Below are positions 1-64,000 of a DNA stretch of 64,000 bases, piece after piece. Every line of letters starts with the position of its first letter. Position 1 is the first letter of the stretch. Origin of the DNA: a virus (Duplodnaviria > Caudoviricetes); IMG/VR virus record IMGVR_UViG_642973512_000001, positions 68,563 to 132,562 of that record. One strand, given 5' to 3'. Position numbers and translations under genes: made by a program. The notes below the pieces were generated by a model. That model searched no databases, was not told the DNA's origin, and was given only the letters and a program-made list of their open reading frames with translations.

Positions 1-2
1 AT

Positions 3-1031: not shown

Positions 1032-1057
1032 TACTATAGAGAAATGGGGGTTGACAA

Positions 1058-3148: not shown

Positions 3149-3168
3149 TACTTTAGGAGGAATATAAA

Positions 3169-3642
3169 ATGAGAGCGACTCAAAAAGATATCTACATTCC
3201 AAAGACCATCACTGAAAAGGTAACTGCTGTAAACGAGAAAATTAACAACATCATAGACAATAGGGACCGAAATACAGTTGATGTATCTGTTAGTTACTTA
3301 GATGCTGACAACAAAGTATTATCTAAGGAAAGCTATAGTATCTTCAATGAGAATTTTGACTTCCTGATGTCTCAACATTCTGTGTTTGGGGAAGGAAAAC
3401 CTAAGGATGCTTATCGTGAAAGCGATTTGTGGTATGTGGTTGATATCTTGAGAGGGGTAAAGCAGATGCCAGAACCAGACCCAGTTGAAGAAACCCCTCC
3501 TACTACAGAAGAACCTATAACTGAAGAACCTATAACTGAAGAGGAGCCGATAACAGGAGAACCTATCACCGAGGAACCAGCGAGTGACACTACTCCCAGC
3601 ACAGGAGACACCACTACTGGAGAAGGTAGCACAACTGATTAA
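3169..3642 (+). CDS. Hypothetical tail-module protein with acidic (EEPIT)n C-terminal repeats
   Basis: AGGAGG RBS; repeats visible at both DNA and protein level. Confidence 0.75.
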   Translation: MRATQKDIYIPKTITEKVTAVNEKINNIIDNRDRNTVDVSVSYLDADNKVLSKESYSIFNENFDFLMSQHSVFGEGKPKDAYRESDLWYVVDILRGVKQMPEPDPVEETPPTTEEPITEEPITEEEPITGEPITEEPASDTTPSTGDTTTGEGSTTD

Positions 3643-3656
3643 GGGGGTATTAGAGT

Positions 3657-3860
3657 ATGAAAAAGGTTGAGTACACAGATTCAATACATGATCTAACTGC
3701 TTCTCATAACAAGCTGATGGATAGACTTACAAAAGTAGGCTCTAGGGCTGAGCGCCCTACCAATCCCGACATTGGCATGATGTACTTTGATACCAATCTA
3801 GGGATACCTATATGGTGGAACGGCATGGCTTGGATAAACGCAACAGGGGCATTAGTATAG
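3657..3860 (+). CDS. Small tail-fibre-associated protein
   Basis: GGGGGT RBS; 'RPTNPDIGMMYFDTNLGIPIWWNG' motif typical of phage fibre/spike C-terminal modules. Confidence 0.7.
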   Translation: MKKVEYTDSIHDLTASHNKLMDRLTKVGSRAERPTNPDIGMMYFDTNLGIPIWWNGMAWINATGALV

Positions 3861-3869
3861 TCATAATCT

Positions 3870-3900
3870 AGCAGGTTAATATAACCTGCTTTTCCTTTTT
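3870..3900 (+). terminator. Rho-independent terminator
   Basis: AGCAGGTTA-AT-ATAACCTGCT hairpin followed by a T tract. Confidence 0.75.
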
Positions 3901-3948
3901 ATTCCTTGTCTGGATTTTTATAATTGACATTATACAAGGAGGTATACT

Positions 3949-5754: not shown

Positions 5755-5895
5755 GATATGCTCATGACATCCTAGTGATTACTTATCAAAATTCTCCCCA
5801 TCTTCTGATTTTAAAGGTGTCACCAATCATTACTCTTTACGTACAGGGGTGTTGTTATGGAATATACACATGGAAGGCAGGCAGGAGGTGGGGAC

Positions 5896-6375
5896 ATGAG
5901 ATATTACTTTGGTCAGTTGTTTAACGATTTCCACACAAAAATGATACTCAGTTCAATCGGAGCAGTCATATCAGTCATAGAGAATTTTTATGGAGAAATG
6001 GTATGGGGTTTCCTCATGCTGTTTGTACTGGATTTCATTACTGGAATAATGAAGTCAAAATACAAAGGTGTCCCTATAAGCAGTAAAAGACTTAGAAGCT
6101 CTGTTTCTAAGTTAGGAGCTTATATGATTTTGCTGACTGCTGTTATTGTCACTAGTAAGTACGAAGCGTCTTTTGTCCCTATTATAGCCTTAATCTACTA
6201 TTGGTATATGTTTACAGAACTAAAGTCAATCTTTGAAAATGTGGGTGAAATGGGAATAAAGTTACCTAATTTTCTAAAGGTTAAGGTAGATCAAAAGCTA
6301 GATGAGATTGACCAAAAAGTAGACGCCGTAAAGGAGATTACAGATACATTAGAAAAAGACAATCATGAGAAATAG
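5896..6375 (+). CDS. Holin (phage holin 4 family)
   Basis: Several hydrophobic segments, 'LDFITGIMKS' and 'ELKSIFENVGEMGIKLP' motifs; AGGAGGTG RBS before ATG 5896 (alternative ATG at 5857); directly upstream of the endolysin. Confidence 0.85.
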   Translation: MRYYFGQLFNDFHTKMILSSIGAVISVIENFYGEMVWGFLMLFVLDFITGIMKSKYKGVPISSKRLRSSVSKLGAYMILLTAVIVTSKYEASFVPIIALIYYWYMFTELKSIFENVGEMGIKLPNFLKVKVDQKLDEIDQKVDAVKEITDTLEKDNHEK

Positions 6376-6382
6376 TATTATG

Positions 6383-6407
6383 TGGGCATATCTTATGCCC
6401 ATTTTTT
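6383..6407 (+). terminator. Rho-independent terminator between holin and endolysin
   Basis: TGGGCATA-TCT-TATGCCCA followed by TTTTTT. Confidence 0.6.
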
Positions 6408-6437
6408 ATTTTATAATATTAAAAGGAGGTATGTGAT

Positions 6438-7469
6438 GTGGGAGCACCATTTACACTACAGGAACTTATTGACAAGTCCAACAAAAGACTAGGTGTTTCA
6501 GGACTGAACAAGGTAGTATATGAGTCCGCCATTGAAGTCATCAAAAGAGCATACAAAGAAGGTATCTGGGTTCAGTATTCTGCTGGATACCGTTCCTATG
6601 CAGAGCAAAACGCCCTGTACGCCCAAGGTCGTACAAAACCAGGTAGCATTGTTACAAATGCTAGAGGTGGGTACTCTAACCACAACTTTGGATTAGCAGT
6701 TGACTATTTCTTGTATGACGACAATGGTAAAGCACACTGGAATGTTAACTCTGATTGGAAGCGTGTTGCTCAGATTGCTAAAGATCTAGGCTTTGAATGG
6801 GGTGGAGACTGGAAGAGTTTCTATGACGCTCCTCACTTAGAAATGACTGGAGGTTTATCTACAGCACAACTTCGTGCAGGTAAACGCCCTAAACTAGTTT
6901 CTAAAGTCAAAAATCCTGTAAGTAAGCCTAGCACATCTTCAAGCTCTTCTGGTTCTTCCAAGAAGAACTACTTGTCTAAGGGTGACAACAGCTCTGCTGT
7001 TAAAACCATGCAAGAAAAGCTTAATGCGGCTGGCTTCAGTGTCGGGAAGGCTGATGGTATCTTCGGAGCTAAAACTGAGTCTGCTCTAAAAGCATTCCAG
7101 AAATCTGTAGGTATCTCTGCTGATGGTCTTTATGGTCCAACCTCTAAGGCTAAACTTGAATCCTACAAAAAGCCATCTAGCTCAAAAAAGTCTAAGGGTA
7201 CTATTGTTCTCCCTAAAGGGGTTGTGTCTAGTGGCTCCAGTCACTCTGACATCAAGAATGTACAAACAGCTACCTCAGCTCTGTATTTCTACCCAGATAA
7301 GGGAGCAAAGAACAATGGTATTGATGGGTACTGGGGTCCTAAGACACAAGATGCTATTCGTAGGTACCAAAGCACTAAAAGTGGTCTGAAAACTGATGGT
7401 ATCTATGGTCCTGCTACACGTAAAGCCTTGGAAAAAGACTTAAAAGAGGCAGGGTACACTGTAAAGTGA
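6438..7469 (+). CDS. Endolysin: M15 (L-Ala-D-Glu) peptidase plus two PG_binding_1 domains
   Basis: 'GYRSYAEQNALYAQGRT..S.HNFGLAVD..WGGDWKSFYDAPHLE' catalytic motifs; 'DGIFGAKT..A.KAFQ..DGLYGP' binding repeats. Confidence 0.92.
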   Translation: MGAPFTLQELIDKSNKRLGVSGLNKVVYESAIEVIKRAYKEGIWVQYSAGYRSYAEQNALYAQGRTKPGSIVTNARGGYSNHNFGLAVDYFLYDDNGKAHWNVNSDWKRVAQIAKDLGFEWGGDWKSFYDAPHLEMTGGLSTAQLRAGKRPKLVSKVKNPVSKPSTSSSSSGSSKKNYLSKGDNSSAVKTMQEKLNAAGFSVGKADGIFGAKTESALKAFQKSVGISADGLYGPTSKAKLESYKKPSSSKKSKGTIVLPKGVVSSGSSHSDIKNVQTATSALYFYPDKGAKNNGIDGYWGPKTQDAIRRYQSTKSGLKTDGIYGPATRKALEKDLKEAGYTVK

Positions 7470-7497
7470 CCCTGACCCCCTAAAGGAGGAATAACAC

Positions 7498-7872
7498 ATG
7501 GAACAATTTGTAAACGCTCTTGTACAAGCTGGTGTTGAGATTATTGTGATTATTCTTGGTGCTCTGTTATCCCTTGTGTCTGCTAAAGCGGTCAAGGTAC
7601 TTAACACAATCAAGAAAAAGGATGAAACTGGAATCGTAGACGCAGTTACTGATGCTGTGGTTAACCTAGCTGAGAAAGAGCTATCAGGTGCCAAAGGTCT
7701 AGAAAAACGTGATTATGCTGTTAAGAAAGCTGTGGAAATCCTACACTCTAAAGGACTAAAAAGCATCACTGAAACCGAAATCCTTGCTGGGATTGAAGCG
7801 GGTGTTAAAAAGATGCCCAAAAAAATCGGCGCCACACTTTCAATTGATGGTCTAAGCCAGAATGTAGAATAA
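7498..7872 (+). CDS. Second holin-like membrane protein (LL-H type)
   Basis: N-terminal TM helix and 'AV..AE...G.EK..A...IEAGV' pattern; directly downstream of the endolysin. Confidence 0.7.
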   Translation: MEQFVNALVQAGVEIIVIILGALLSLVSAKAVKVLNTIKKKDETGIVDAVTDAVVNLAEKELSGAKGLEKRDYAVKKAVEILHSKGLKSITETEILAGIEAGVKKMPKKIGATLSIDGLSQNVE

Positions 7873-7880
7873 TGATAGGC

Positions 7881-7915
7881 AAAAATCCCTTGGAAATCCA
7901 TCCAAGGGATTTTTT
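7881..7915 (+). terminator. Rho-independent terminator ending the lysis module
   Basis: AAAAATCCCTTGGA..TCCAAGGGATTTTT inverted repeat with T tract. Confidence 0.85.
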
Positions 7916-8041
7916 ATTGGATAAGGATAATCGAAAAATTCACCTATCATTCCCCTACTGTCATCTTTATACATTGAAATCTTCACTGCCCGTACCCTAC
8001 TGATTTGACTACACTTCCCAGATGAGAAAAAATTAGGTCAA

Positions 8042-8072
8042 CGGTGAAAAGTTCGGTAAATTCAATTATTTT
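8042..8072 (+). promoter_or_regulatory. Putative gp28-dependent middle promoter
   Basis: CGGTGA-18 bp-TTATTTT compared with the SPO1 middle consensus AGGAGA-18-TTTnTTT. Confidence 0.45.
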
Positions 8073-8106
8073 TTATATGAAGAAATTAAAATGGAGGTGC
8101 CCTGCT

Positions 8107-9699
8107 GTGGCGATTATAGAGCTAGGTAATGTGCATTCAACCATAAAAGAAGCTTCTAAAGAAGCTATGCACCGCCTTAATGAAGCACTGGCTGTGGAAA
8201 AACCGGGGTTCTCGTTTTCTTCAACATACAATAGAGGGTTTTGGGATGGAAAAGTACGGTTCTTAAACAAGAAGACAGGACAGTTCCCTACGGGACTTTT
8301 ATCATATGTAGCTAAAACTCTTAAAAAACATGGAGAAGAATATGAGATAGTAGACAAAAGAACTCCGATTGAATACTCAGTTGGTAAAGAAATCATACTT
8401 AGTCATAAAAAACTGGGTCAGATTACCCTCAGAGACTACCAGTACGAATGTGTAGAAAAAGGTCTTGCCGCTTCCAGAGGAATTATAAATGTGGCTACCA
8501 ACGGAGGTAAAACTGAGATTGCTTGTGGCATAATCAAGTCTATATTACCTCACCTAAAAGAGGGTCAAAAAATAGCCTTCTTTACTCACTCTACTGAAAT
8601 CTTTAACCAGTCAGCTAAAAGGATATCTGAGAGGTTACAGATAAATGTAGGCAAGATTGGGGCAGGTACTTGGGATGAACAACAGGTCACTGTAGTAATG
8701 ATACCTACTATTCAAAAATACTATAAAAAGCCTAAAAAACCAACTGCCACAAAGAAATTAAAAGACCTACAGGCTGAGGCTAAAAGACTAAAAGAATTAT
8801 CCATAAGGGATAAGTCATATAAAGAAGAATATAAAAGTGCCCAAGAAGCTGTTAAGCAATACACCAAACAACAAATGGACAAGCTAAATGAGGGTTATAA
8901 TAAAGGTAAAAGTTTCCTGGATTCCCTAGTTGGCTTTATAGCTGATGAAGCTCACCACTCCTCCTCAGATACTTGGTATAATATCTTCATGTCCCTAGAA
9001 GACTGTTATTTCAGGTATGGTCTAACTGGGACAGTGGATGATTCAGAGGACTCAGATGAGATAAACATATTCAGATTATATGGGTGCACGGGAAAGATTA
9101 TCAAGAAAGTAACAAACAAGTTTCTAATAGATAATGGCTATTCAGCTAAGCCTACAGTATATTTCTTACCTGTGAACACTAAATCAGTTGATTATGTAGA
9201 CTATCAAACCGCTAGGGATCAAGGTATTATCAATAATCAAGAAAGAAACCAAGTGTTTGTTGATAAGGTACTGGAGAGAGCAAAATCAGGGAAACAGTGT
9301 TTAATTATTGTGAACGAAACAACTCATGGTGAGATCATCTTAAGCATGCTACAGAACCAAGGAGTAACAGTAGACTTCACCCATGGGGAAATGACTAAAA
9401 CACACAGGCAATCAGTTCTTGATAGACTGGATGAAGGTTCTCTAGATGTTCTGGTAGCAACACCTATATTAGATGAAGGTGTGGATGTGTCTGGTATTAA
9501 CTGTCTGTTTTTAATGGCGGGCGGCAAGAGTATGAGACAGATTCTGCAAAGAATTGGGAGGGGTCTACGTAAGAAAGAAGATGGTAGTGGTCTTGAGGTT
9601 TATGACGCTCTAGATTATCATAATGAATTTCTGGTGGATCACACAGCTAGGAGATATCAGACTTACAAAAACGAGGAATTTGAAGTTAAAAAGCTGTGA
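8107..9699 (+). CDS. SF2 DEAH-box DNA helicase (UvsW-like)
   Basis: LRDYQ, ATNGGKT, DEAHH, GLTGT and QRIGRGLR motifs; GGAGGTG RBS before GTG 8107. Confidence 0.9.
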   Translation: MAIIELGNVHSTIKEASKEAMHRLNEALAVEKPGFSFSSTYNRGFWDGKVRFLNKKTGQFPTGLLSYVAKTLKKHGEEYEIVDKRTPIEYSVGKEIILSHKKLGQITLRDYQYECVEKGLAASRGIINVATNGGKTEIACGIIKSILPHLKEGQKIAFFTHSTEIFNQSAKRISERLQINVGKIGAGTWDEQQVTVVMIPTIQKYYKKPKKPTATKKLKDLQAEAKRLKELSIRDKSYKEEYKSAQEAVKQYTKQQMDKLNEGYNKGKSFLDSLVGFIADEAHHSSSDTWYNIFMSLEDCYFRYGLTGTVDDSEDSDEINIFRLYGCTGKIIKKVTNKFLIDNGYSAKPTVYFLPVNTKSVDYVDYQTARDQGIINNQERNQVFVDKVLERAKSGKQCLIIVNETTHGEIILSMLQNQGVTVDFTHGEMTKTHRQSVLDRLDEGSLDVLVATPILDEGVDVSGINCLFLMAGGKSMRQILQRIGRGLRKKEDGSGLEVYDALDYHNEFLVDHTARRYQTYKNEEFEVKKL

Positions 9700-9708
9700 T
9701 GTTGCTAC

Positions 9709-9734
9709 AAAGGCTGGGGTTGCGCTCAGCCTTT
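9709..9734 (+). terminator. Terminator-like hairpin after the helicase
   Basis: AAAGGCTGGG..CTCAGCCTTT. Confidence 0.55.
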
Positions 9735-9843
<109 letters not shown>

Positions 9844-9916
9844 ATTTTTGTCCTACGAAGTAGGACAAAAAGAGCGCAACACAACAATATCGTCATACAG
9901 TATGGGGGTACTGAAA

Positions 9917-10690
9917 GTGGCAGAGAAGTTTATACGCAAACCTATTAAAATACCTAGGAAAAGTATAAAGTTGCCTTCTCGACTAAAATATTATATGAAG
10001 CTACGACAGATACAGTTAGAAACAAGGACTGAAGACATAGTAGAGATAGCAGAGCACTATAATATGTTAGTTCAGGAGACAACTAAGAAGGCAGGGCACA
10101 CAGCTTTGCCCTATAAAAATCCAGAGAAAGGTAAGCACTGGGTACATTTTGAAACTGTTTATGAAATATGCAGATTAAAAGAATGGAACCCTAAGGTATA
10201 TTTAGAAGCTCAGTTTAAAAGGTCTAAGGGGTGGAAGAAAATACCATATCCTTATCCAAACAGCTTGTATTCTGACAGTGCCTTAAAGTACTTTATAAGC
10301 TACTACGGGGAAATGCGAAGAAAATATGAAAAAGATGCCAATAAGCAACGTAGGGTAGTTGAAAAGAAGACTATAACCTTACAGGACAGAATTAAAACCA
10401 GCATAGAAAAGGACTGTGAGCTACTTAAGCGCAAACTAAAAGGCAGTGTCGACAGGGAGAAAGATAAGGCACTAATAATATTTCAGGGGTGGATGTCTTT
10501 TTCTCCTTTTTATTTGTGGAGCATCCCTTGGTTTCATGACATCACAGGAGACTTGAGAGGTAAGCACATGGATAAAATTAAGTTAGAGTTCGGGAGAATC
10601 AATAAGTCTCCTATGATGCAGGACGTCATCACTAAACACGTACAGCAAATGGAAAAGCAGAATAATATACCAGCTAACATCACCCTTTAG
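9917..10690 (+). CDS. Basic hypothetical protein upstream of the replicative helicase (possible loader/initiator)
   Basis: GGGGGT RBS before GTG 9917; function inferred from position only. Confidence 0.65.
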   Translation: MAEKFIRKPIKIPRKSIKLPSRLKYYMKLRQIQLETRTEDIVEIAEHYNMLVQETTKKAGHTALPYKNPEKGKHWVHFETVYEICRLKEWNPKVYLEAQFKRSKGWKKIPYPYPNSLYSDSALKYFISYYGEMRRKYEKDANKQRRVVEKKTITLQDRIKTSIEKDCELLKRKLKGSVDREKDKALIIFQGWMSFSPFYLWSIPWFHDITGDLRGKHMDKIKLEFGRINKSPMMQDVITKHVQQMEKQNNIPANITL

Positions 10691-10762
10691 TATATGGGAG
10701 ACAATTTTATGCGGACCCGATTGAATTAGTAGTGAGTATGATTCAAGGGGGTCCGAATTTTT

Positions 10763-12133
10763 ATGTCCGATACGTATGAGTTTTCAGAGAGTTTCCAGAG
10801 AAAGATACTGTCCATTATGGCGAGGGACAGACTGGCTTACACCTCTTTCCAAGAGTTACTAAAGCCTAGTTATTTCAAAAGTGAGATTCACATTGATCTG
10901 GCTAGGATAATTCATGAGCATTATGATAGGGAGTCTTCTCGTGCTAAGTCTAAAGGCACGGATGTCAACCCACCTACTATACATGTTCTCTTTGAAGAGG
11001 TGCGGAGACTTACAAAGAGCAATAAAAAGAAAGCTCAGCTTAAGGAGCAGTATGAGGAAGAAATAATTGACTTAATGGATGAAGATTTAACAGACTGTGA
11101 GTATGTCAAGGATAGTATTGTTAGATTTGCCAAGGATGCGGCAATAAAAGAAGCCATATTAGAATCAGTAGAAGACATTGAGAAAGGAGCCAATTCACGG
11201 GACGTTGACTACTCAGTAATAGAGGAGAGAATAAAAGAAGCTGTTCAGGTAGGAGAAGTAATGGAAGATTTGGGTGTCTCCTACTTTGATCGTGCTAAAG
11301 AGCGTATGGATGAGTATGCCCAAGGTACTGATGGGGTTAGACGCATACCAACTGGTATGGAGGGTGTTGATAAAACCCTAGGTGGTGGCTTAGGTGGGGG
11401 AGAACTTGGTATTGTTATTGCTCCTCCGGGGCGTGGTAAATCTATAGCCCTGACCAATATAGGAGCAGGAGCTGTCCTAGAGGGGTATAGTGTTGCCCAC
11501 TATACCATGGAAATGCCTGAGAGACAGGTAGAAAAACGATATGACAATAGACTACTGCAAAAAGATACCCAGTATCTTCTTGACCCAGAGAATGCTAGTA
11601 GGGCTTTTAAAGCTCTCCAGATGTTGCAAAAAACAGCAGGTTCTAATAGGGGTAAAAATGGTGACCTTATTATCAAAAAGTTCCCTGTAAATGGGTGCAC
11701 CATTAACACTATTAGATCACATTTAACTAAGTTACGTATGGAGAGAAACTTTGTACCAGATGTTATCATCATTGACTATGGTGATCTTATTTCTCCAAGA
11801 CGAACATACTCAGATAAACGTTTTGAGCTAGAGTCTGTATACTTAGATATGCGTGATTTAGCCGCAGAGTATGATTGTCCTGTGTGGAGCGCAAGTCAGG
11901 CTACAAGGGGTGCTCTAGATAAGAAAGTTATTACAATTGGTGACCTTGCGGAAGCATTTAATAAAGCCAACATTGCTGATTTTATGATGGCTCTATGCCA
12001 AACAGAAGAAGAGAAAGAAGATGGGGAAATGAGACTGCATGTAGCCAAACATAGATCAGGTACTTCTAGTATTACTATGTCTGGAGACATAGAGTACTCT
12101 ACTATGACATTGACTGCATATGCGGAGGATTGA
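10763..12133 (+). CDS. DnaB-like replicative helicase
   Basis: Walker A APPGRGKS, 'YTMEM', 'IIIDYGD', 'WSASQATR' and 'KHRSG' motifs. Confidence 0.93.
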   Translation: MSDTYEFSESFQRKILSIMARDRLAYTSFQELLKPSYFKSEIHIDLARIIHEHYDRESSRAKSKGTDVNPPTIHVLFEEVRRLTKSNKKKAQLKEQYEEEIIDLMDEDLTDCEYVKDSIVRFAKDAAIKEAILESVEDIEKGANSRDVDYSVIEERIKEAVQVGEVMEDLGVSYFDRAKERMDEYAQGTDGVRRIPTGMEGVDKTLGGGLGGGELGIVIAPPGRGKSIALTNIGAGAVLEGYSVAHYTMEMPERQVEKRYDNRLLQKDTQYLLDPENASRAFKALQMLQKTAGSNRGKNGDLIIKKFPVNGCTINTIRSHLTKLRMERNFVPDVIIIDYGDLISPRRTYSDKRFELESVYLDMRDLAAEYDCPVWSASQATRGALDKKVITIGDLAEAFNKANIADFMMALCQTEEEKEDGEMRLHVAKHRSGTSSITMSGDIEYSTMTLTAYAED

Positions 12134-12684
12134 TCTACATGATGTGTCCATTTTGTAAGTCAAAAGGTAGGGAGTCTGAAGTTTTTCAGACCCCTATTTT
12201 TAATCGTTGTTACAGATGCCTTGCTGATTTACCTACCGAGAAGCTTTTAAAGAAGGAAGTTTCTTTAAATGGAAAGGGCAAAGTGATGATTTGTTCTATC
12301 CATAACCGTAAAAGTGTAGAGGGAGCAGATGTTCATTTATTTGCTGTAGGTAAGCCCAAAGGGACGTTCTACTTTGAGTGGTGGGACCATACTCCGGGAT
12401 TAGCTCCAAGTAGGGAGCTTGTCACATTTACCAAAGAGTATAATAGAACTAAGGGTAAAAAAGAAGGTTGGTTTGAAAGATATACGGAACGACTGTTAGA
12501 TGAGTGGTCAAAACGTAAAGATTTTATGAAATCTATGAAAAAGCTTAGAAGGAACCTTGATGCTGGTAAGAATGTAGCAATAGCTTGCTATTGTCCTAAG
12601 TATAAGAGGGATGTGTGCCACCTATCTATACTAAAGGAATTACTAGAAGATATGGGTTATTATGTGGAGGAGGTAGAGGATTAA
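12130..12684 (+). CDS. Zinc-ribbon plus DUF488-like protein
   Basis: N-terminal CxxC..CxxC; 'LAPSRELV..F.RY' and 'IACYC..CHLSIL' patterns. Confidence 0.6.
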   Translation: MIYMMCPFCKSKGRESEVFQTPIFNRCYRCLADLPTEKLLKKEVSLNGKGKVMICSIHNRKSVEGADVHLFAVGKPKGTFYFEWWDHTPGLAPSRELVTFTKEYNRTKGKKEGWFERYTERLLDEWSKRKDFMKSMKKLRRNLDAGKNVAIACYCPKYKRDVCHLSILKELLEDMGYYVEEVED

Positions 12685-13778
12685 TGAAGATAGCAGTATT
12701 TTCAGACTTACATGCTCATAAGTACAAAGAGTTTGACAAAGTTAGTGACTTGACAGGTTCAACCAGACTTGACAGCTTGCTAGATGTTTTGGATCAGATT
12801 AAGGAACACTGTCTGGACATGGGTATTACTCAAATTTTATTTGCGGGTGATATGTTCCACGTTCGGGGCAGGGTAGACACAGTGGTGCAGAATCGCATAT
12901 ACGATAAGTTTAAGGAGATTTGTGCATCTGGTATCAAGGTCTTAGCTATTCCAGGTAACCATGATGACCATAATAACAAAGACCTACCAGAGCATTCTCT
13001 TCATATGTTTAAAGATATAGAAGGTATGACTGTAATAGATACTCTAGATCACTATATTCTAGATGATGGCACCCCTGTAGTGTGTTGTAGATACAGTAAA
13101 AATGCCCAAATGGTCAAGGACTATATTAATAGTATAGATCCATCCCAATTTGAAAACCAACCTTTACTACTAGCTCATCTAGGAGTGTCTGGTGGTCTAA
13201 TAGGAAAGTCCAGTTATGTTATGGCAGATGCGTTTTCTGTGGAGGATTTAAGACCCGACATCTTTAAGTACATTATTCTAGGACACTTCCACCGCAGACA
13301 GTTTCTTGGAGGATACAAACATGTTCTGTATACTGGGGCACCTTTACAACATTCATTTAGTGATGAAGGGGAGCATAAGGGATTCTACATTGTTGATACA
13401 GCCCGCAGATGTCAGATTGACTTCATGCCTTTAGAGAGTCCAATGTTTCATACAGTGACTAAAGAGATTATTGAAAAATCTGAAGAGTGTACTGGTGATC
13501 ATGTTCTAGGCAATATTTTGTATACAGGTCTGGAGAGGGGAGACTTTTTTCGAGTTTTGTTAAAGGAAAACGAGGTTGACTGGTTCAACTCTGTTGTCAG
13601 TAAGTATGAGGGTCTTCAGTACAAAATAGTACTTGAGAAGCAGTATACTCAGGAAACTAGGGTTGATGTGCAGGTGGGTATGCCTTTTGAAGAGATAGTA
13701 GCTAAATATGCAGAAGAGTTTAACCCAGATGCTAAAGAGGTAGGTCTTAAGATACTGAGTGCCGTACAGGACAAATAA
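12684..13778 (+). CDS. SbcD/Mre11-like metallophosphoesterase nuclease subunit
   Basis: SDLH, AGDMFH, PGNHD and LGHFH motifs; ATG overlaps the upstream stop. Confidence 0.9.
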   Translation: MKIAVFSDLHAHKYKEFDKVSDLTGSTRLDSLLDVLDQIKEHCLDMGITQILFAGDMFHVRGRVDTVVQNRIYDKFKEICASGIKVLAIPGNHDDHNNKDLPEHSLHMFKDIEGMTVIDTLDHYILDDGTPVVCCRYSKNAQMVKDYINSIDPSQFENQPLLLAHLGVSGGLIGKSSYVMADAFSVEDLRPDIFKYIILGHFHRRQFLGGYKHVLYTGAPLQHSFSDEGEHKGFYIVDTARRCQIDFMPLESPMFHTVTKEIIEKSEECTGDHVLGNILYTGLERGDFFRVLLKENEVDWFNSVVSKYEGLQYKIVLEKQYTQETRVDVQVGMPFEEIVAKYAEEFNPDAKEVGLKILSAVQDK

Positions 13779-13791
13779 GGGGGTCGGAACG

Positions 13792-14088
13792 GTGTGCCAA
13801 GAGTGTGTTAGAACACCTATTAAAATCAAAAGAAAACCAGTAACGGCTATATCTGAAGCAGGTCTTAAAATGGGTCTATGGTATCCAATGCCAAGACCAG
13901 AGGAGGATGAGCCTCCTAGGTGGAAAACTAAGAGTAATCAAAGGATTCTCTGGTGTCCTTGGTGTATGGACTGGGCTATTTTTAACAAGACAGCCGGAGG
14001 GTTACGATGGAATTGTACGGGTGTATGCGGTTGGGGTAACACAGATGAATTCCATACAAAAACTCAAAACAGGCTCTGGGGTGAATAG
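13792..14088 (+). CDS. Hypothetical Cys-rich (Zn-binding) protein
   Basis: CQEC, CPWC and CTGVC motifs; GGGGGT RBS. Confidence 0.6.
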   Translation: MCQECVRTPIKIKRKPVTAISEAGLKMGLWYPMPRPEEDEPPRWKTKSNQRILWCPWCMDWAIFNKTAGGLRWNCTGVCGWGNTDEFHTKTQNRLWGE

Positions 14089-14230
14089 GATGTCTGACTT
14101 TAAGATAAAAGCAATGGTAGAGCACGGAGGGTCTATATGGACTTTAAACCAGTTGTTTCAGAAAGTATCGGGGTATTCTGATCACTATGTAACGGATAAG
14201 AGAACAAATAGAAGGTGAGGAGGATGAAAG

Positions 14231-14449
14231 ATGAGTGACAACAGTAATAAGACCATAACTATTTCAGTGGAAGAGTATGACAACAGTATCAAGACTATAA
14301 CTATTCTCCTAGAGGAGTACCAGCATCTAATAGATCGTGTATCTTTCCTAGATTGCCTGGAGTCCACTGGGGTGGATAACTGGAGTGGGTATGGAGAAGC
14401 CCAAGAAATGTATAACGAGGACTCTGAGGAGGAGACAGGTGGATATTAG
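14231..14449 (+). CDS. Small acidic hypothetical protein
   Basis: AGGAGG RBS; internal duplicated KTITI..EEY motif. Confidence 0.7.
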   Translation: MSDNSNKTITISVEEYDNSIKTITILLEEYQHLIDRVSFLDCLESTGVDNWSGYGEAQEMYNEDSEEETGGY

Positions 14450-14747
14450 GCTTAATAATAAATGTCAGATTGATCTAGGTGATATAGTTGAGATACACGG
14501 AAAACCTTACCTTATTATCATGTTGAACCCTTCCACAGTTTTTACAGTAGGAGATCAGGAATACCCACAAAAAAGGTACTATCCTCAGGCTTTTGACGGC
14601 AGAGGGACCTATTGTGAGCCAAGGACTCTTAGTGAGTTAAATGCATATATCTACGATCAGGATAAAAAAGCAAGAGTGTACCCTAAAGAGAAATTCTTTT
14701 TACAGCTAGGGGTGAAGGACGTTCATGAAGATGGAAAAGTACAGTGA
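14439..14747 (+). CDS. Hypothetical protein
   Basis: AGGAGG RBS before GTG; coupled to both neighbours. Confidence 0.6.
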   Translation: MDIRLNNKCQIDLGDIVEIHGKPYLIIMLNPSTVFTVGDQEYPQKRYYPQAFDGRGTYCEPRTLSELNAYIYDQDKKARVYPKEKFFLQLGVKDVHEDGKVQ

Positions 14748-15075
14748 ATGTAAAAGAATGACAGTGCACGCTGTAGGGTTAGATAAAGACTACAATATAG
14801 TAAAAACAAGAAATGGAAACTACGGGGAATGTAAGAACATTCCTGGGGCGTGTGGTTGTACTCACGCTGAAATACAGCTTCTTAGCCATATGGCCAATCC
14901 AGTCATGGTATGTGTGAGTCATAGTCCTTGTTTGAATTGTGCTAGGGAGCTTGTTAAGGCAGGGGTGAAGTATGTTCACTATAGTGAACCCTATAGAGTT
15001 GCAGATGGGATTGAGTACCTAAAGAGTAGCGGTGTAACAGTTCGTCAAGTACCTAAGGAGCGATGGCAGGTATGA
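14725..15075 (+). CDS. dCMP deaminase-like protein
   Basis: HAE...SPCxxC Zn-dependent deaminase motif. Confidence 0.85.
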   Translation: MKMEKYSECKRMTVHAVGLDKDYNIVKTRNGNYGECKNIPGACGCTHAEIQLLSHMANPVMVCVSHSPCLNCARELVKAGVKYVHYSEPYRVADGIEYLKSSGVTVRQVPKERWQV

Positions 15076-16985
15076 AAATTAAACAGATAAGCATAGAAAA
15101 CTTCATGTCTATTAAAAAGACCTCTTTTAACTTTGATAATAGAGGTCTTGTACTAATCACTGGGGATAATCAGGACGCTTTTGATAGCAATGGGGCAGGA
15201 AAGTCTACAGCTTTCAGTGAAGCCCCCTGCTGGGCTTTGTATGGACAAACCATAAGAGGATACAAGGCTGACAAGGTGGTCAACAAAAATACAAAAAAGA
15301 ACACCGTTGTATCTCTGCAAATTGAGGATGATAATGGGGACCTATATGAGGTTGTCAGGGCACGTAAGCATAGCACTCTTAAGAACCATGTATATTTGTA
15401 CAAAAATGGAGAGAACATCACAGGTAAAAGTGATACTGACACCAATAACATGATCATTGATCTTTTACAAATGGATTTCTCAACCTTTACTAACTCTATT
15501 ATGTTTGGTCAAGGTGCTTCTAAGATGTTTGCCAACTCTACAGATACAGAGCAGAAGCAGATACTGGAGAGAATGTTGCAGATAGATATCTTTAAGGCTT
15601 GTCAGGAAGAAGCTAAGAACATGGTATTAAACTTGGAAGAAAAGATCAGAAGAATAGAAAGTGACAAAGAAAGTATTGAAAGCCGTTTGAGGGTACACAA
15701 GACCAATTTACAAGAGCTACAAGAGAAAGAAACACAGGCTATTAAATCTGCTCAGGAAAAGATAGACCAATATACGAAAGATATAGAAGAAAACCAAAGT
15801 GAGATTGAAAGTGCAAAAGGTGAGATAGAAGACCTAGAAAGTGATATCGAGGTTATGCAAAAAGCCATCAAAAAGAATCAAAAAACTCTGGAATTCTATA
15901 AAGAACAAGAAGAAGCCTATAACACCCTTGTTGGTGATAGGTCAGCTCTTCTTAGGGACTTTAAGAAATTGGAGAAAAAAGTACTTAAAACTAAAAGCGA
16001 GCTTGATGATCTTAGAAGTGGAAAAAGTGTGCCTGAGGTGTGTGATATGTGTGGGCAAGATTTACCCTTAGAAGACACCACTCACATGCAAAATCACCTA
16101 ACAGACAATATAAAAAATTATACAGAAGAAATCAAGGAGATCAAGGATGAAATCGCTGAACTCGATCCTCTGATTGAAAAATTAGAGAAACATCTGAAAT
16201 CTAAGGATAGGTATGAAAAAGATCGTATTAAATATGCTGAAACTGTAGCCGAATACAAAGGGGATTTAAAACTTGCCAATTCTAAGATTCAGTCTCTGGA
16301 GAAAGAAAACAGGAACCTTAATAAGCTTATCAAGGAGCAGAAGGAGGCACAGGAGGTACAGTACACAGACCTCATAGAAAAAGAGATCGAAAACATTAGG
16401 GTAGCAGAAGCAGACATTGAAACGAGGAGTAACAATATCACAAGGATGTCTGAAGAACTGGAAAAGTATAGTTTCTGGCATACTGCCTACGGTAACCAAG
16501 GTATTAAATCCATCCTGTTAGACAGTGTTACTCCTTTCCTTAATCGTAGAGCCAATTATTACTTATCTGCCTTGTCTGATTCTACTATGGAAGTAGAATT
16601 TAATACTCAAACCACCCTATCAAGTGGAGAGAAGCGAGATAAATTCTCTGTAGAGGTAAGAAATGAAAATGGGGAAGACGGATATAAAGGAAGTAGTAAT
16701 GGGGAGAAAAGACGTATTGATGTGGCTGTTAATATGGCGTTGCAAGATTTAGTAATGTCTAGATCAAATAAGAAAATTGATCTTATAGTATACGATGAAG
16801 TCTTTGAAGGACTGGATCAGATTGGGTGTGAAGCTGTTATACAGCTTTTAAACGAGAAAGCCAAACAGTGTGGTACAGTAATGGTAATCACTCACAGTGA
16901 ATCACTAAAACAACTGTTCAGTAACACCCTAACAGTTAAAAAGATTAATGGCAACACTGTGATTGTCGACGAATTGTCTATATAG
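15072..16985 (+). CDS. SbcC/Rad50-like ATPase nuclease subunit
   Basis: NGAGKS Walker A, long coiled coil with CDMC zinc hook, S.GEK signature, YDEVFEGLD Walker B, ITH. Confidence 0.92.
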   Translation: MKIKQISIENFMSIKKTSFNFDNRGLVLITGDNQDAFDSNGAGKSTAFSEAPCWALYGQTIRGYKADKVVNKNTKKNTVVSLQIEDDNGDLYEVVRARKHSTLKNHVYLYKNGENITGKSDTDTNNMIIDLLQMDFSTFTNSIMFGQGASKMFANSTDTEQKQILERMLQIDIFKACQEEAKNMVLNLEEKIRRIESDKESIESRLRVHKTNLQELQEKETQAIKSAQEKIDQYTKDIEENQSEIESAKGEIEDLESDIEVMQKAIKKNQKTLEFYKEQEEAYNTLVGDRSALLRDFKKLEKKVLKTKSELDDLRSGKSVPEVCDMCGQDLPLEDTTHMQNHLTDNIKNYTEEIKEIKDEIAELDPLIEKLEKHLKSKDRYEKDRIKYAETVAEYKGDLKLANSKIQSLEKENRNLNKLIKEQKEAQEVQYTDLIEKEIENIRVAEADIETRSNNITRMSEELEKYSFWHTAYGNQGIKSILLDSVTPFLNRRANYYLSALSDSTMEVEFNTQTTLSSGEKRDKFSVEVRNENGEDGYKGSSNGEKRRIDVAVNMALQDLVMSRSNKKIDLIVYDEVFEGLDQIGCEAVIQLLNEKAKQCGTVMVITHSESLKQLFSNTLTVKKINGNTVIVDELSI

Positions 16986-59719: not shown

Positions 59720-60031
59720 ATGAAATTTATTTATGCAGATAACGATAACTTTGGTAAGGCAATTAACGAGGTACGCAAAGAGCAGGGTTTAGACCCTATT
59801 GAAGGTGGAGAAGCAAGATTACCTTCAAATATCCTAGTTGCTTTCTGTAAGGAAGATGACTTCCGTAGAGGAAAAGATGGTATTTTTAGACTAGGAGTGG
59901 ATATGGTAACTTCCCTTGAAGATGGAGATACTATACAAGTGATACATGAGGAATCCGGTATAGAGCAAGTAGGTACTGTTCACTTACAAACAGATGGCAG
60001 TTTTCAGTTTGTACCGAAAGAGGATAAATAA
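59720..60031 (+). CDS. Hypothetical protein
   Basis: AAGGAGTG RBS. Confidence 0.65.
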   Translation: MKFIYADNDNFGKAINEVRKEQGLDPIEGGEARLPSNILVAFCKEDDFRRGKDGIFRLGVDMVTSLEDGDTIQVIHEESGIEQVGTVHLQTDGSFQFVPKEDK

Positions 60032-60190
60032 TAGATACAGTTAGATTTACCCCCACATATCATCATTTGTGGGGGGATAGCTACTATATAGGCTCCATAC
60101 TTGCTTTTACACCACGTCCATGCTGTAGGTGTGGAGAAAGACCTACACAAATGAGAGCCGAGTGTAACCAGTGTTACAAGGAGGATATTT

Positions 60191-60364
60191 ATGGAGAGAC
60201 CACACATTTATATGCTCATAGGTAGCATACTTGGAATTATTGGGGCAATTATCTTAGCTTTTTACTATACAAGTAACTCACTATTTGTAGGGATATGCTC
60301 TCTAGTGGTTTTTATACTTGGAGCAGTACTCTGCTTGATAGGTGTAGTAGATGAGTTCTCATAA
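60191..60364 (+). CDS. Small two-TM membrane protein (57 aa, not in ORF track)
   Basis: AAGGAGG RBS; MERPHIYMLIGSILGIIGAIILAF... Confidence 0.6.
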   Translation: MERPHIYMLIGSILGIIGAIILAFYYTSNSLFVGICSLVVFILGAVLCLIGVVDEFS

Positions 60365-60394
60365 CTTGTGCTATGATCTGTAAGGAAGGTATTT

Positions 60395-60616
60395 ATGGAA
60401 AAAGTTAAAGTAAGTAAAGAGATAGCTGAGTTGCTGGATAGACAAAGTAAGGATGATTGGTGGAAACAGTTCAATCTTATTGCCCACTGTGGAGGGTACT
60501 CAGGTAATGGCATACAATATAAGAGCATCTATACCGAAGAGTTCAGACCTCTGGAGAAACTAAAGCCCCTAGATTATGCGAAATGTATTATAATTGGGTA
60601 TGAAGTAGAGGAGTAG
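60395..60616 (+). CDS. DUF1642-like hypothetical protein
   Basis: 'EKVKVSKEIAELL...IIGYEVE'. Confidence 0.65.
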   Translation: MEKVKVSKEIAELLDRQSKDDWWKQFNLIAHCGGYSGNGIQYKSIYTEEFRPLEKLKPLDYAKCIIIGYEVEE

Positions 60617-60624
60617 GATACAGT

Positions 60625-60909
60625 ATGAGTCTACAGAGTAATGAAAGTAACCCTATTATCCAGTTTATGGAAAGTCTAATTGAAGATATGGGTGACATGA
60701 CTTGGAATGTTGTAAGCATAGAAGAGTATAAAGAAGTTAAGAGTGAAGATGGTACTGTATATGCTGAACTGTCTGATGGGTCTAGGTTTGAGAAACAGGA
60801 GAACATCTATATCCACCAGATGCAAGGATTCTTTGAAGATGACTACAGCGGCACTGTGATTAAGCCTGTAACTGATACCATGGCGGTTGTTGTTTCTTAT
60901 CGTAGCTAA
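60625..60909 (+). CDS. Hypothetical acidic protein
   Basis: ORF in operon. Confidence 0.65.
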   Translation: MSLQSNESNPIIQFMESLIEDMGDMTWNVVSIEEYKEVKSEDGTVYAELSDGSRFEKQENIYIHQMQGFFEDDYSGTVIKPVTDTMAVVVSYRS

Positions 60910-60925
60910 GGAGGAGGAAAACAAA

Positions 60926-61204
60926 ATGACTAAATTCAGAAAGAAGCCCATTGAGGTAGAAGCGGTTGAGTTTAAAGGATGGAACAGCAAGCAACAGGTA
61001 GAATTTAGTGATCGCCCAGAATGGCTAAATGAAGCTATTGGAAAAGAAATTCTTTTCTTCGGAGAACCTAGAACAATAACTATCAAAACACTTGAAGGAA
61101 GTATGATTGCAAACGAAGGCGATTTTATCATCAAGGGTGTAAAAGACGAGCTATACCCATGTAAGCCTGACATATTCCACAAAACATACGAGGAGGTAAA
61201 ATAA
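60926..61204 (+). CDS. acb4: Probable anti-CBASS sponge Acb4 family protein
   Basis: 92 aa 'KFRKKPIEVEAV...TLEG.M.A..GDFIIKGVKDELYPCKPDIF.KTYE'; family link recalled, not searched. Confidence 0.65.
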   Translation: MTKFRKKPIEVEAVEFKGWNSKQQVEFSDRPEWLNEAIGKEILFFGEPRTITIKTLEGSMIANEGDFIIKGVKDELYPCKPDIFHKTYEEVK

Positions 61205-61205
61205 A

Positions 61206-61442
61206 ATGAGTAAATTTATTGAGGTTACACTAGATTCAGGAACTATGTTTAAGGGGTTAAAAGTTGCACGCTCATCTATTAGGAAGGATGCCATCATGGA
61301 AGTATCTGAAGTGGAAGCAATCCGTGGGGAGCAAAAGGGAGAAAAAAGGTGCAAGATTAGGATGGCGGATACTCTAGGTACTAAGGTGTACTACCTGATA
61401 GACTCATACGATGAAATTATGGAGAAATTGGCTCATGAATAA
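61206..61442 (+). CDS. Hypothetical protein
   Basis: GAGGAGGT RBS. Confidence 0.65.
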   Translation: MSKFIEVTLDSGTMFKGLKVARSSIRKDAIMEVSEVEAIRGEQKGEKRCKIRMADTLGTKVYYLIDSYDEIMEKLAHE

Positions 61443-61812
61443 GAGAGATAAAAGACGTAGAGCCGCCCAACTCAGGAAGGCAGAGCAATCCAAGCACAAA
61501 AAGTACCACAGTCTTGCTGAGTATAAAGGGGTAACCGAGGAAGAGTTTGATGCATATGTAAAGGAGCATAACCTTAAAGAACGTCCTATGTTCGCTGACA
61601 AGGTTCTGTACCTAGATAACGAAGGTATCCCAAAAGCTTATAAGTGGTTACCTTTTTATGACCAAGAGACTTCAGTAGAAACCTACTATGTCTATGATGG
61701 CGGGGATAACTTTGAGAGATCAGTACGACAACATCTAAAGGAGTCTGTATACTGGAGTCGTGAGTTTAATAAAGATGGTAAGCCCATGAAGCTAAGGGAG
61801 AGGCAGAAATGA
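61435..61812 (+). CDS. Hypothetical protein
   Basis: ORF in operon; core resembles 46436-46810. Confidence 0.6.
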   Translation: MNKRDKRRRAAQLRKAEQSKHKKYHSLAEYKGVTEEEFDAYVKEHNLKERPMFADKVLYLDNEGIPKAYKWLPFYDQETSVETYYVYDGGDNFERSVRQHLKESVYWSREFNKDGKPMKLRERQK

Positions 61813-62030
61813 AGATCAAACATGCTATTGAGGAATTAAAAAAGCTTAACCCTGAGAAAGACCTCTATGTAGAAGCGAATCGGGAACTTGGAATGGTCAC
61901 TGGTCTAGTAACTGACCCTACTGGAGACGCCATGTTTGTGGACTGGGAGAGACCCTTAGAGAAACAAAAACATGACTTATACAAGTATACTAAGTCTACT
62001 GAGGGGGAGGAGGGTCCCCATGAATCTTAA
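61809..62030 (+). CDS. Hypothetical protein
   Basis: ATGA overlap; GGAGAGG RBS. Confidence 0.65.
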   Translation: MKIKHAIEELKKLNPEKDLYVEANRELGMVTGLVTDPTGDAMFVDWERPLEKQKHDLYKYTKSTEGEEGPHES

Positions 62031-62379
62031 TAACCTAGAGAAGTACTCCAAGAAAGAGTTAATGCAGATATACAGGAACTTGAATAACTGGAAGTGGGAT
62101 TATAGGCTGGGAGAGAAGCCCAAGGGGTGGGACAATCTTCCAAATAAAGGGGCAAAACTTGGGCTTGCAAGTAAACAGATATATACCCTATCAGCTATTC
62201 AAAGGATTCAAGAGCACATGGGAATTAAGCGTCTGCATCTGAAGCCTAGTGTGATAATGTCACATAGGAAAGGTCTAGCATTTGAGATATGGTGGATACT
62301 GTTCAGGCTTAGAGATAAGATAGAATATCGTAAGTATAAAAAGAAGCTGATTGAAGTGGAAGAATTTGGTGATCTCTAG
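62020..62379 (+). CDS. Hypothetical basic protein
   Basis: GGAGGAGG RBS before ATG 62020. Confidence 0.65.
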   Translation: MNLNNLEKYSKKELMQIYRNLNNWKWDYRLGEKPKGWDNLPNKGAKLGLASKQIYTLSAIQRIQEHMGIKRLHLKPSVIMSHRKGLAFEIWWILFRLRDKIEYRKYKKKLIEVEEFGDL

Positions 62380-62463
62380 GACAATCCTAGGGATTTTCTA
62401 TTTGATTCTATTAATTTCCTAAAGATTTTTGTAAAGGTAAATAAAGGAAATTAAAGGAGGAAA

Positions 62464-62829
62464 ATGGAAATGGTTAATGATCCATACACTAACCCATTAG
62501 GTGGATTGTTTGATGTAGGGGAAGGGCTAAAGGCTAGGTTTGATGGTGTAAGCTTTGATTGCACTACTGTTCGCAAAACTATTGATAGGAGCGGGAATTA
62601 TATTCTGGTTGATGATTTAGTAGGTAAAGGGTATGTGTGGGTTGAGGATTATAGAGGACTTGCTGTGTGTGAAGCCTTTGGAAAGTCTACAAGTATCAAA
62701 ACTACTACTAGCTTGGAGTTTGATCTTCGTAAGCTGTCTGAAGAAACTAAACAACTTATGGTAGAGGTTTATGCTAGGATACAGGATGAACTAAAGGCTG
62801 ATATCAAGGCTACTATAGAGACTAGATGA
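62464..62829 (+). CDS. Hypothetical protein
   Basis: AAGGAGG RBS; followed by a hairpin at about 62861-62888. Confidence 0.7.
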   Translation: MEMVNDPYTNPLGGLFDVGEGLKARFDGVSFDCTTVRKTIDRSGNYILVDDLVGKGYVWVEDYRGLAVCEAFGKSTSIKTTTSLEFDLRKLSEETKQLMVEVYARIQDELKADIKATIETR

Positions 62830-63181
62830 TCTTAGTATTCAAATATTTCTTATACAAAATTCCCCTAGATTTTCCTAGGGGATTTCTTCTGCCCACAAAA
62901 GACACTGAACGTAATCAAACTTGGTAACAAGTTGCTATTTAATTTGTGTGGGCTTTTCAGCGTTTGATCAGGATTATTTTTGCAATATTTTTGTAGTTGT
63001 CCCGCCTGAATTACGGCTTGTAAATCAAATATTAAATTTATTTAAGCTAAGCGGCGGTAGACTTTTACAAGCCCTGCAACATCATATCCTGAGTATCTTG
63101 AAATTTCTTTTTACGTAACTTTTTACAACCCCCTTAACATCCTACTGTAAGTATCTTACAATCCAATATTTACAAGACTAC

Positions 63182-63212
63182 AAGAGGTACATTATACAAT
63201 GTCCTCTTTTTT
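63182..63212 (+). terminator. Terminator-like hairpin
   Basis: AAGAGGTACATT-ATAC-AATGTCCTCTT followed by T tract. Confidence 0.5.
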
Positions 63213-63339
63213 GTATGCCTTTTTTACCCTATAAACCACTTCCCCAAATCATAAATTCAATATACAAAGTGTATTATTTTCATATAATTTTGACCTCCGA
63301 TTTTTATACTCTTTCTTAGGATTTGAATTCATATGAGTA

Positions 63340-63700
63340 GTGACGATATTTAAGGGCGAAGCACCCGAAAGGGTGATGCTTATCGACCCTGATAAGTATC
63401 AAGCGAAGGTACTCCGAAGGATACCTACTAGCGACCTGAAGGGATTAGCGAAGTCCTACCGAGGTACTCCGAAGGGGCTACCGAGTGGTAACCTGAGGGT
63501 TACATGTAGGACTACGATAATACGAGCGTATAGCGATGTTGCTTTGGAATGGTTGGGCGATACACTTTTGTGTATAGGGGTACTCTGTATCCCCTACTAC
63601 AGTGCAAAAAAGGGTATCGGAGGAGTACGAAGTACGGGGGTAGCTGGGTACGGCAGGAGCTATGCTCTCTGCACAGTGTAATAGGGAACTGAGCGGGCAG
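63340..63700. ncRNA. Candidate structured non-coding RNA (or structured DNA) element
   Basis: GC-rich island densely packed with hairpins and repeated GCGA/CCGAAGG motifs. Confidence 0.45.
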
Positions 63701-63710
63701 ATAACTTATA

Positions 63711-64000
63711 TCTGAAGAGTATAGGCTTTAATGCCTAGAAAAGTTCAGGGGCACCAGAATTTAGAGCATATCTGAAGAGTAATGACATTACATGTTCACA
63801 AAACTCAGGGGGCTAGATTTCAAAGTCCTATCCGAAGTGTACGTTGATACAGCATTCACAAACATATTCGGGGACCAGAATTTAGAGTCCTTACCTGAGG
63901 TATATTGGCGTATACGTCCAAACAAACTTCAGGGACCAGAATTTAGAGTCCTTACCTGAGGTATATTGGCGTATACGTCCAAACAAACTTCAGGGACCCT
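63711..64000 (+). repeat. Degenerate 60-63 bp tandem array of hairpin units (at least 5 copies, runs to the window edge)
   Basis: Units start at 63711, 63771, 63831, 63894 and 63955; the last two are exact copies with a 61-bp period. Confidence 0.92.

Follow-up and report, generated by a model that had tools for sequence, protein, structure and literature searches.

Toward the right-hand end of the window, by which we mean the whole 64,000-nucleotide (nt) stretch of viral DNA analyzed here, a block of small genes is closed by a terminator-like hairpin with a T run (positions 63183..63215). Beyond it lie a promoter-like site (63261..63288), a hairpin-rich non-coding element (63318..63700) and, directly downstream of that element, a tandem array of structured units (63708-64000); these features, including the units and linkers of the array, are on the plus strand. 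The stretch from 62800 to 64000 matches 13 phage records at 86-98% identity, every one a Bacillus subtilis myophage of the genus Okubovirus (SPO1-like), and judged by sequence the window is itself an SPO1-like Okubovirus, a Bacillus phage. In the annotated relatives, the region sits between the gp34.91 homologue and gp36.1. Our comparisons cover the window and 12 of the 13 matching records; SPO1L2, whose match is identical to that of SPO1L1, was omitted. No tRNA was found. Literature searches, which did not cover the SPO1 genome paper and so leave room for the array to have been described already, found no paper treating the array, and searches of the SPO1 transcriptome and ribosome-profiling literature gave none treating this region.

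The array consists of five head-to-tail units of 60-63 nt each, with start-to-start spacings of 60, 60, 63, and 61 nt. A first-pass annotation of this DNA had claimed at least five hairpin units here, and both that number and the outer stems it quoted are borne out by the sequence. Within each unit, the outer stem encloses an A-rich internal loop and an inner hairpin that varies between units, and a conserved linker leads on to the next. A 5' arm (TCTGAAG, TCCGAAG, or CCTGAGG) comes first, followed by the inner hairpin, a stretch rich in A, a 3' arm that closes with a run of G, and the linker. The unit cores occupy 63708-63751, 63768-63812, 63828-63873, 63891-63934, and 63952-63995, and the linkers between them occupy 63752-63767, 63813-63827, 63874-63890, and 63935-63951.

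The units belong to four types, named for their inner hairpins. Unit 1 with its linker (63708..63767) is of type A, with the inner hairpin TAGGC/GCCTA and a predicted RNA folding energy of -13.3 kcal/mol (z, -3.0). Unit 2 with a diverged linker (63768..63827) is of type B and has a weak hairpin (RNA, -4.6 kcal/mol; z, +0.2), while unit 3 with its linker (63828..63890) is of type C, with the outer stem CCGAA/TTCGG (RNA, -9.3 kcal/mol; z, -2.0). Unit 4 with its linker (63891..63951) is of type D, with values of -16.1 kcal/mol (z, -4.3) as RNA and -7.1 kcal/mol (z, -3.4) as DNA. Unit 5 (63952..64000; RNA, -15.0 kcal/mol) is of type D as well, and its last bases, CAGGGACCCT, are the unique-side flank of the left cut site described below. 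The cores of units 4 and 5 are identical, as had been noted on first inspection; a comparison in the 61-nt register gives 98% owing to one base in the preceding arm. The linker ACCAGAATTTAGAGTCC stands at 63874..63890 and again at 63935-63951, is diverged at 63752-63767 and 63813-63827, and carries a copy of a motif from the right terminus.

Because the inner parts of the units differ, Tandem Repeats Finder misses the other units and detects only the last 2.3 copies (period 61, 96% matches). A repeat search recovers the linker and stem families shared across units. A pattern describing the unit has 8 matches in the window against 0.97 expected, of which six lie in the array and two are coding coincidences. 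The array occurs once per genome, and in three whole relatives the unit pattern is absent elsewhere, save for two coding coincidences. Counts of the simple motif YYGARG showed no enrichment in the region, and a collection scan with a 14-nt linker word returned 118 unrelated viral contigs with one match apiece, which is the level of chance.

Among the relatives, the array varies in both length and composition. Phages phi18 and Goe16 have a single unit; SPO1L1, Goe2, SPO1L3, SPO1L5, and Adastra have two, with an extra remnant linker in Adastra; Goe10, Goe9, SP8, and phiBsKO1-1 have three, the last of which is cut in phiBsKO1-1; Goe19 has four; and the window has five. Six types of inner hairpin are found across the 33 units, their order differs between phages, and any type may stand last. 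In phiBsKO1-1 (920-975 of the fetched region), about 95 nt are missing, a gap that reaches from the end of the last unit across the cut site into the beginning of the terminal repeat and that may be an assembly fault or a real deletion; the same region also has several single-base indels.

The end of the array adjoins the first base of the long terminal repeat (TR), that is, the physical left end of the packaged DNA. In 11 of 11 relatives that continue past this point or stop cleanly there, the array ends with ...CAGGG(G/C)ACCC(T) and is followed by GTCCCGCCCCCATAGG, and the final bases of the window, ...GGGACCCT, represent the same border. The Goe10 record, which includes both TR copies, begins exactly with GTCCCGCCCCC (GTCCCGCC...) and ends with ...CCTTAGGAGTC; the Adastra record begins with TGTCCCGCC, and those of Adastra and SP8 end with ...CAGGGACCC. 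The first TR gene, the gp36.1 homologue, starts at base 125-127 in eight records. The borders of Goe2 were mapped by Sanger run-off on virion DNA (PMC5490822), and the annotation of the Adastra record gives primer walking as the source of its repeat. The left cut lies at the edge of a small palindrome, GGGAC-CCT-GTCCC, between CCT and GTCCC. Since the end of the array coincides with record starts, record ends, and the start of the TR, no unique DNA intervenes between the array and the left cut site.

The likely orientation of this border can be considered in light of a related phage. Packaging of phage 812 begins with the left end, which then remains attached to the portal, whereas the right end is the first to be ejected (PMC12886913). 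If this polarity holds here, the left cut would be the packaging start and the array would enter the cell right after the right-hand TR.

Such an order of entry would suit a signal, like that of T5, at which injection pauses or stops on reaching the inner edge of the first-entering TR, a reading that we regard as quite unlikely. On the phage 812 model, the right TR with its early genes would go in first and the array next (PMC12886913), and the T5 stop region, too, is an extensive non-coding stretch of repeats and palindromes that lies at the edge of a TR and exceeds nearby genes in conservation (bioRxiv 10.1101/866236). Duplex DNA moving through the tail, however, cannot form hairpins, and a copy number of 1 to 5 with any type at the border is odd for an essential signal. 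To our knowledge, two-step injection has not been reported for SPO1-like phages. The T5 injection stop signal (Repeat Region 3) also differs from the array in lying mostly inside the left TR and in carrying paired DnaA boxes, whereas a search of 63200-64000 for a DnaA box at up to one mismatch found none.

The linkers of the array resemble the opposite end of the genome. Within the 64-kb window, the pattern TTAG[AG]?AGTCC is confined to two linkers, at 63882 and 63943, and its one occurrence in bases 1-16000 of Goe10, at 14436, is the right terminus of the TR. This terminus, ...AGGAGTCCCGTTTCCTTAGGAG(TC), is identical in five of six Okubovirus records, with a slight variant in Goe16, and that of the B. 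cereus phage JL nearly matches the Okubovirus form. The linker corresponds to the sequence preceding the left cut (CAGGGACC) joined to a near-copy of the TR end, and it does not have the CCT found at the real sites. When the first 20 bases of the TR are compared with the last 20, they are alike at 14 of 20 positions, a likeness for which an equal chance match exists elsewhere in 16 kb; both ends may come from one kind of staggered cut.

Further small elements accompany the right terminus. About 30-40 nt inside it, both Okubovirus and JL have a G-rich/C-rich hairpin (for example, GGAGGGGG...CCCCCCC) whose arms differ while the pairing is kept. Some 60 nt outside the right border of the TR, at 14500-14570 in Goe10, there is a short tandem repeat, TTCGTAGTGC, in two to three copies plus degenerate ones.

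The explanation we favor, to which we give about an even chance of being right, is that the array is a variable series of "hairpin + pseudo-terminus" modules forming the unique-side flank of the cut and packaging-start site. Cutting of the concatemer at the palindrome, between CCT and GTCCC, would make the left end and leave the array as the flank on the unique side. Each module would consist of a hairpin-forming segment and a linker resembling a disabled terminus motif, with the last module meeting the real cut site. The modules would act in cis, presumably as recognition or loading sites for terminase or the end-processing machinery, which would then start packaging at the left end. One module would suffice and additional ones would be tolerated, and unequal recombination through the conserved linkers would allow modules to be gained, lost, and shuffled. 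What ties the array to end formation is its position, its uniqueness in the genome, its terminus-like linker, and a parallel in Staphylococcus phage K that is described below. The genome-end or injection-signal alternative offered by the first-pass annotation fits these same observations, namely, an array that ends at the TR start, a linker like the right terminus, and the phage K parallel. Protein binding, the action of the hairpins as DNA or as nascent transcript, and the chemistry of the cut are parts of this scheme that we infer. The array as such is dispensable, as CP-51-like phages are without it and two Okubovirus phages have a single unit.

Among the observations that count against a packaging flank is that a terminase that binds double-stranded DNA needs no hairpin potential, yet pairing in the units survives sequence change. 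We examined the folding of the 33 units from the window and 12 relatives, which reduce to 30 distinct cores, with z scores calculated against dinucleotide shuffles. As RNA, about 24 of the 30 cores adopt the full structure of outer stem, internal loop, and inner hairpin. The z scores of the 30 cores average -1.9 and range from +0.2 to -4.3, and their mean energy is about -10 kcal/mol, compared with -5.5 kcal/mol (standard deviation, 3.3) for 1,500 random 45-mers of the window. By this measure, unit 2 folds no better than chance (-4.6 kcal/mol against the random mean of -5.5). Among the inner hairpins, types A, C, and D are strong in complementarity, and types B, E, and F are weak and singly no better than chance.

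Several differences between units preserve pairing. One pair of the outer stem, C-G in type C, is T-A in most types, and a hybrid unit of SPO1L3 has T-A once more; in type D, an inner pair that is G-C in the window appears as A-T in both Goe10 and Adastra. When the 5' halves of the six types were matched with all 3' halves, the sum over cognate arms ranked 5th among 720 permutations, with the cognate arm being the best partner in only three of six rows. The covariation is real, though it rests on few events. Of the earlier claim that the outer stems co-vary while the inner pairing is kept, the compensatory changes and the fit of cognate arms stand, with the qualification that the events are few and the hairpins of unit 2 and of types B, E, and F weak.

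This pairing bears on a reading in which the array has little function and is a by-product of slippage or unequal crossing-over at a repeatedly nicked and copied site, with its internal cut motifs disabled by selection. A copy number that ranges from 1 to 5, with two phages having one unit, is what such a process would give, as are the exact duplicate in the window, internal linkers without the CCT of the real site, and CP-51-like phages without an array. On the other hand, all six inner types keep a hairpin at the same place, cognate arms rank 5th of 720, compensatory changes occur within types, and phage K has an independent array at the same border. We consider a by-product unlikely.

The state in which the hairpins would act is suggested by their energies, which also count against a packaging flank. 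With DNA parameters, the units of the window reach only -2.6 to -7.1 kcal/mol, and just one of the four, type D, has a z score below -2. The units are thus weak as DNA hairpins, and their large internal loops make cruciforms unlikely. The plus strand folds better than the minus strand in 24 of 28 distinct cores, compared with a background of 58% for random 45-mers, and G-U pairs across these 28 cores number 43 on the plus strand versus 16 on the minus; this comparison leaves out the units of phiBsKO1-1, which have indels. That the hairpins are kept, that they are weak as DNA, and that the plus strand is favored all argue for the importance of a single-stranded form, of which RNA is the simplest. 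The proposal that conserved pairing with divergent sequence points to a single-stranded form thus holds.

The main alternative is that the array is RNA. A long non-coding transcript, beginning at about 63296-63350 and including the upstream element, could have the array as its 3' domain; equally, the array could belong to a long leader that precedes the gp36.1 operon, both in the right-hand copy of the TR and in concatemers. We treat this as a possible explanation, though a tentative one. In either form, the hairpins would serve transcript stability, processing, or protein binding, and adjacency to the TR would be incidental or loosely coupled, a role to which we attach the same tentative standing. 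It would account for hairpins that fold far better with RNA than with DNA parameters and for the bias of the plus strand in both folding and G-U pairs. A fold of the whole 63296-64000 region is also more stable than expected (plus strand; z, -5.3), although the minus strand folds well too (z, -4.4).

Features of the sequence upstream of the array are in keeping with its transcription. The hairpin at 63183..63215 (RNA, -10.8 kcal/mol; z, -2.8), which closes the small-gene block, was not listed by a consensus scan, as its stem is bulged. The site at 63261..63288, of the sigma-A type (TATACA-16-TATAAT), follows this hairpin, points toward the upstream element and the array, and is conserved as the same site in Goe10; the count of promoter-like sites in the region is not above that of shuffles, and we regard this site as a lead only. 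Inspection of the sequence shows no terminator separating the upstream element from the array. Just before the hairpin, at 63060-63165, there are two tandem copies, each of about 45 nt, of another promoter-like sequence (TTTTACAAG/CC...GTATCTT), one of which scores as TTAACA-17-TACAAT.

The upstream element itself (63318..63700) is near-invariant across the window and 12 relatives, and CP-51-like phages have a homologue of it. In place of its hairpin at 63374-63401, the phages JL, CP-51, and Shanette have other sequences that again are complementary, and a second hairpin at about 63578-63597 occurs as three haplotypes in which pairing is kept. RNAalifold analysis of a 13-sequence alignment of the element gave 118 pairs on the plus strand with 0 compensatory, a result explained by the near identity of the sequences; on the minus strand, the 2 compensatory pairs among 95 both belong to the hairpin at about 63578-63597. 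In the collection scan, a 23-nt word from the element was found in 0 viral contigs, and a 19-nt word was found only in 2 unrelated metagenome contigs. We also considered a coding reading of 63340-63681, a 113-codon open reading frame (ORF) that the record of one relative labels a gp34.92 homologue, and rejected it. Indels interrupt this ORF in SPO1L1, it belongs to no Pfam family, and it is probably not a gene.

RNA contigs cover this element. Two metatranscriptome runs from two studies gave contigs over 63372-63640 (270 nt at a depth of 6.5) and over both 63322-63472 and 63542-63681 (each 151 nt), with the caveats that the runs were selected for holding this stretch, that the contigs are strandless, and that DNA carry-over is possible. 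Contigs of the same two runs cover neither the genes at 62200-63300 nor the array, and two raw-read RNA runs, which yielded 0 reads, carry no weight either way. These contigs weakly suggest that the upstream element is a stable RNA, and we view it as a candidate new structured RNA or dense cis element. A search of 60000-64000 against Rfam gave 0 matches at E values up to 1, and one of 63230-64000 at E values up to 10 gave only two chance matches, one to a snoRNA and one to a CRISPR-DR family.

For the array as RNA, then, coverage of 63322-63681 but not of the genes at 62200-63300 is favorable, and the lack of any contig over the array in these same runs is unfavorable. A transcript of this kind would also leave unexplained both the likeness of the linker to the right terminus and the array of phage K, and it must contend with an array that is hypervariable next to an upstream element that is near-invariant. 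The packaging flank and the RNA may both be partly true. In one such combination, which we think doubtful, the element at 63318-63700 and the array would form one plus-strand transcript of about 700 nt directed toward the TR border and aiding end formation or packaging start. The transcript or its synthesis could bring terminase to the cut site or keep the border in an open state. If true, this would be a packaging-linked RNA in a large myovirus, loosely like the phi29 pRNA or the transcription-coupled junction processing of T7.

A more specialized role in RNA had been the leading idea of the first-pass annotation, which proposed a processed small-RNA array of decoys, antitoxin mimics of the pseudo-ToxI type, or a protein sponge. 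ToxI-type antitoxin units are about 34-36 nt and are cut into monomers by a partner endoribonuclease. The array shares with ToxI and pseudo-ToxI a phage-borne tandem arrangement of a structured unit and an expansion in copy number, including a recent exact duplicate, and a variable inner segment flanked by constant parts would also suit a CRISPR-like guide array. It differs in that its units are 60-63 nt rather than about 36 nt, no toxin partner is seen, and the array is tied to a genome end. No match to a type III antitoxin family (ToxI, CptI, or TenpI), for which a covariance-model comparison had been suggested, or to any other Rfam family was obtained, and no CRISPR family reached threshold within the array. 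The three neighboring ORFs scanned have no Pfam family. A search for the inner segments that allowed up to four substitutions found no further copy in the rest of the window and none in the TR region of Goe10. Anti-defense decoys or guides would also leave the TR-border position and the terminus-like linker unexplained, and with no RNA contig over the array, we find a small-RNA array of this kind very improbable.

We return to the array as a flank of the packaging-start site. How ends are recognized and duplicated in phages with long exact TRs, which include SPO1, phage K, T5, and many therapeutic Herelleviridae, is still poorly understood. A structured and variable array placed exactly at the packaging-start border of a classic model phage would offer a concrete cis element for this process. 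As a landmark, the array is also of help in placing the genome ends correctly when new Okubovirus genomes are assembled.

Several known systems have elements in comparable positions. The CP-51-like phages (JL, Shanette, and CP-51) share the general layout of the region, with a terminator, a conserved block, a structured element, a terminus palindrome, and a homologous TR start. Their left terminus lies at the palindrome CACCC-GTTTG-GGGTG, with 5-bp arms, where Okubovirus has GGGAC-CCT-GTCCC, and the arms differ. No 60-nt tandem array was found at the equivalent border of these three phages.

The concatemer junctions of T7 and T3 have short repeat arrays beside the TR as well as pac signals, and a hairpin intermediate has been proposed in the formation of their ends; in T7, the terminal repeat is 160 bp and the repeats of the array are about 7 bp. 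The likeness to our region lies in exact direct TRs, cut sites of fixed sequence, and repeat arrays with symmetry elements beside the repeat. The difference is one of scale, with a TR of 160 bp in T7 versus about 13-14 kb here, and the hairpin intermediate is a proposal for those phages. The pRNA of phi29 is likewise a structured non-coding element beside the genome end of a Bacillus phage, a comparison that bears only on the possibility of a packaging RNA; phi29 belongs to another phage family with another packaging system, and there is no pRNA match among the Rfam results.

The closest parallel in arrangement comes from Staphylococcus phage K, which, like the Okubovirus phages, belongs to the Herelleviridae. 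In K-like (Kayvirus) phages, a 12-bp motif pair, TAAGTACCTGGG / CCCAGGTACTTA, separates the long terminal repeats (LTRs) from unique DNA (PMC6022877); the passage of that report dealing with the borders describes the 12-bp motif and leaves tandem units unmentioned. Directly before the right LTR of phage K (841-945 of the fetched stretch), we found two full tandem units and one partial unit of 35 nt. Each carries CTAAGTACCTTTG, a near-copy of the boundary motif CTAAGTACCTGGG, together with a small inverted repeat, and the third copy runs into the border. The border motif has an inverted copy at the other border. Elsewhere in phage K, just outside the right border of the left LTR (260-380 of the fetched stretch), there are four iteron-like repeats of AAAGTCAACA.

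The K-like borders and the array of the window thus have in common a short motif at the borders between unique DNA and TR and, in phage K, tandem near-copies of it with an inverted repeat. They are nevertheless distinct in sequence: the units are 35 nt in phage K and 60-63 nt in the window, they are non-homologous and not alignable by eye, and TAAGTACCTGGG is absent from the window array. The two border motifs of phage K are inverted copies of each other, whereas in the window the clearest sharing is the direct copy of the right terminus in the linkers. Non-homologous arrays of pseudo-boundary units thus occur at the same border in two distant genera.
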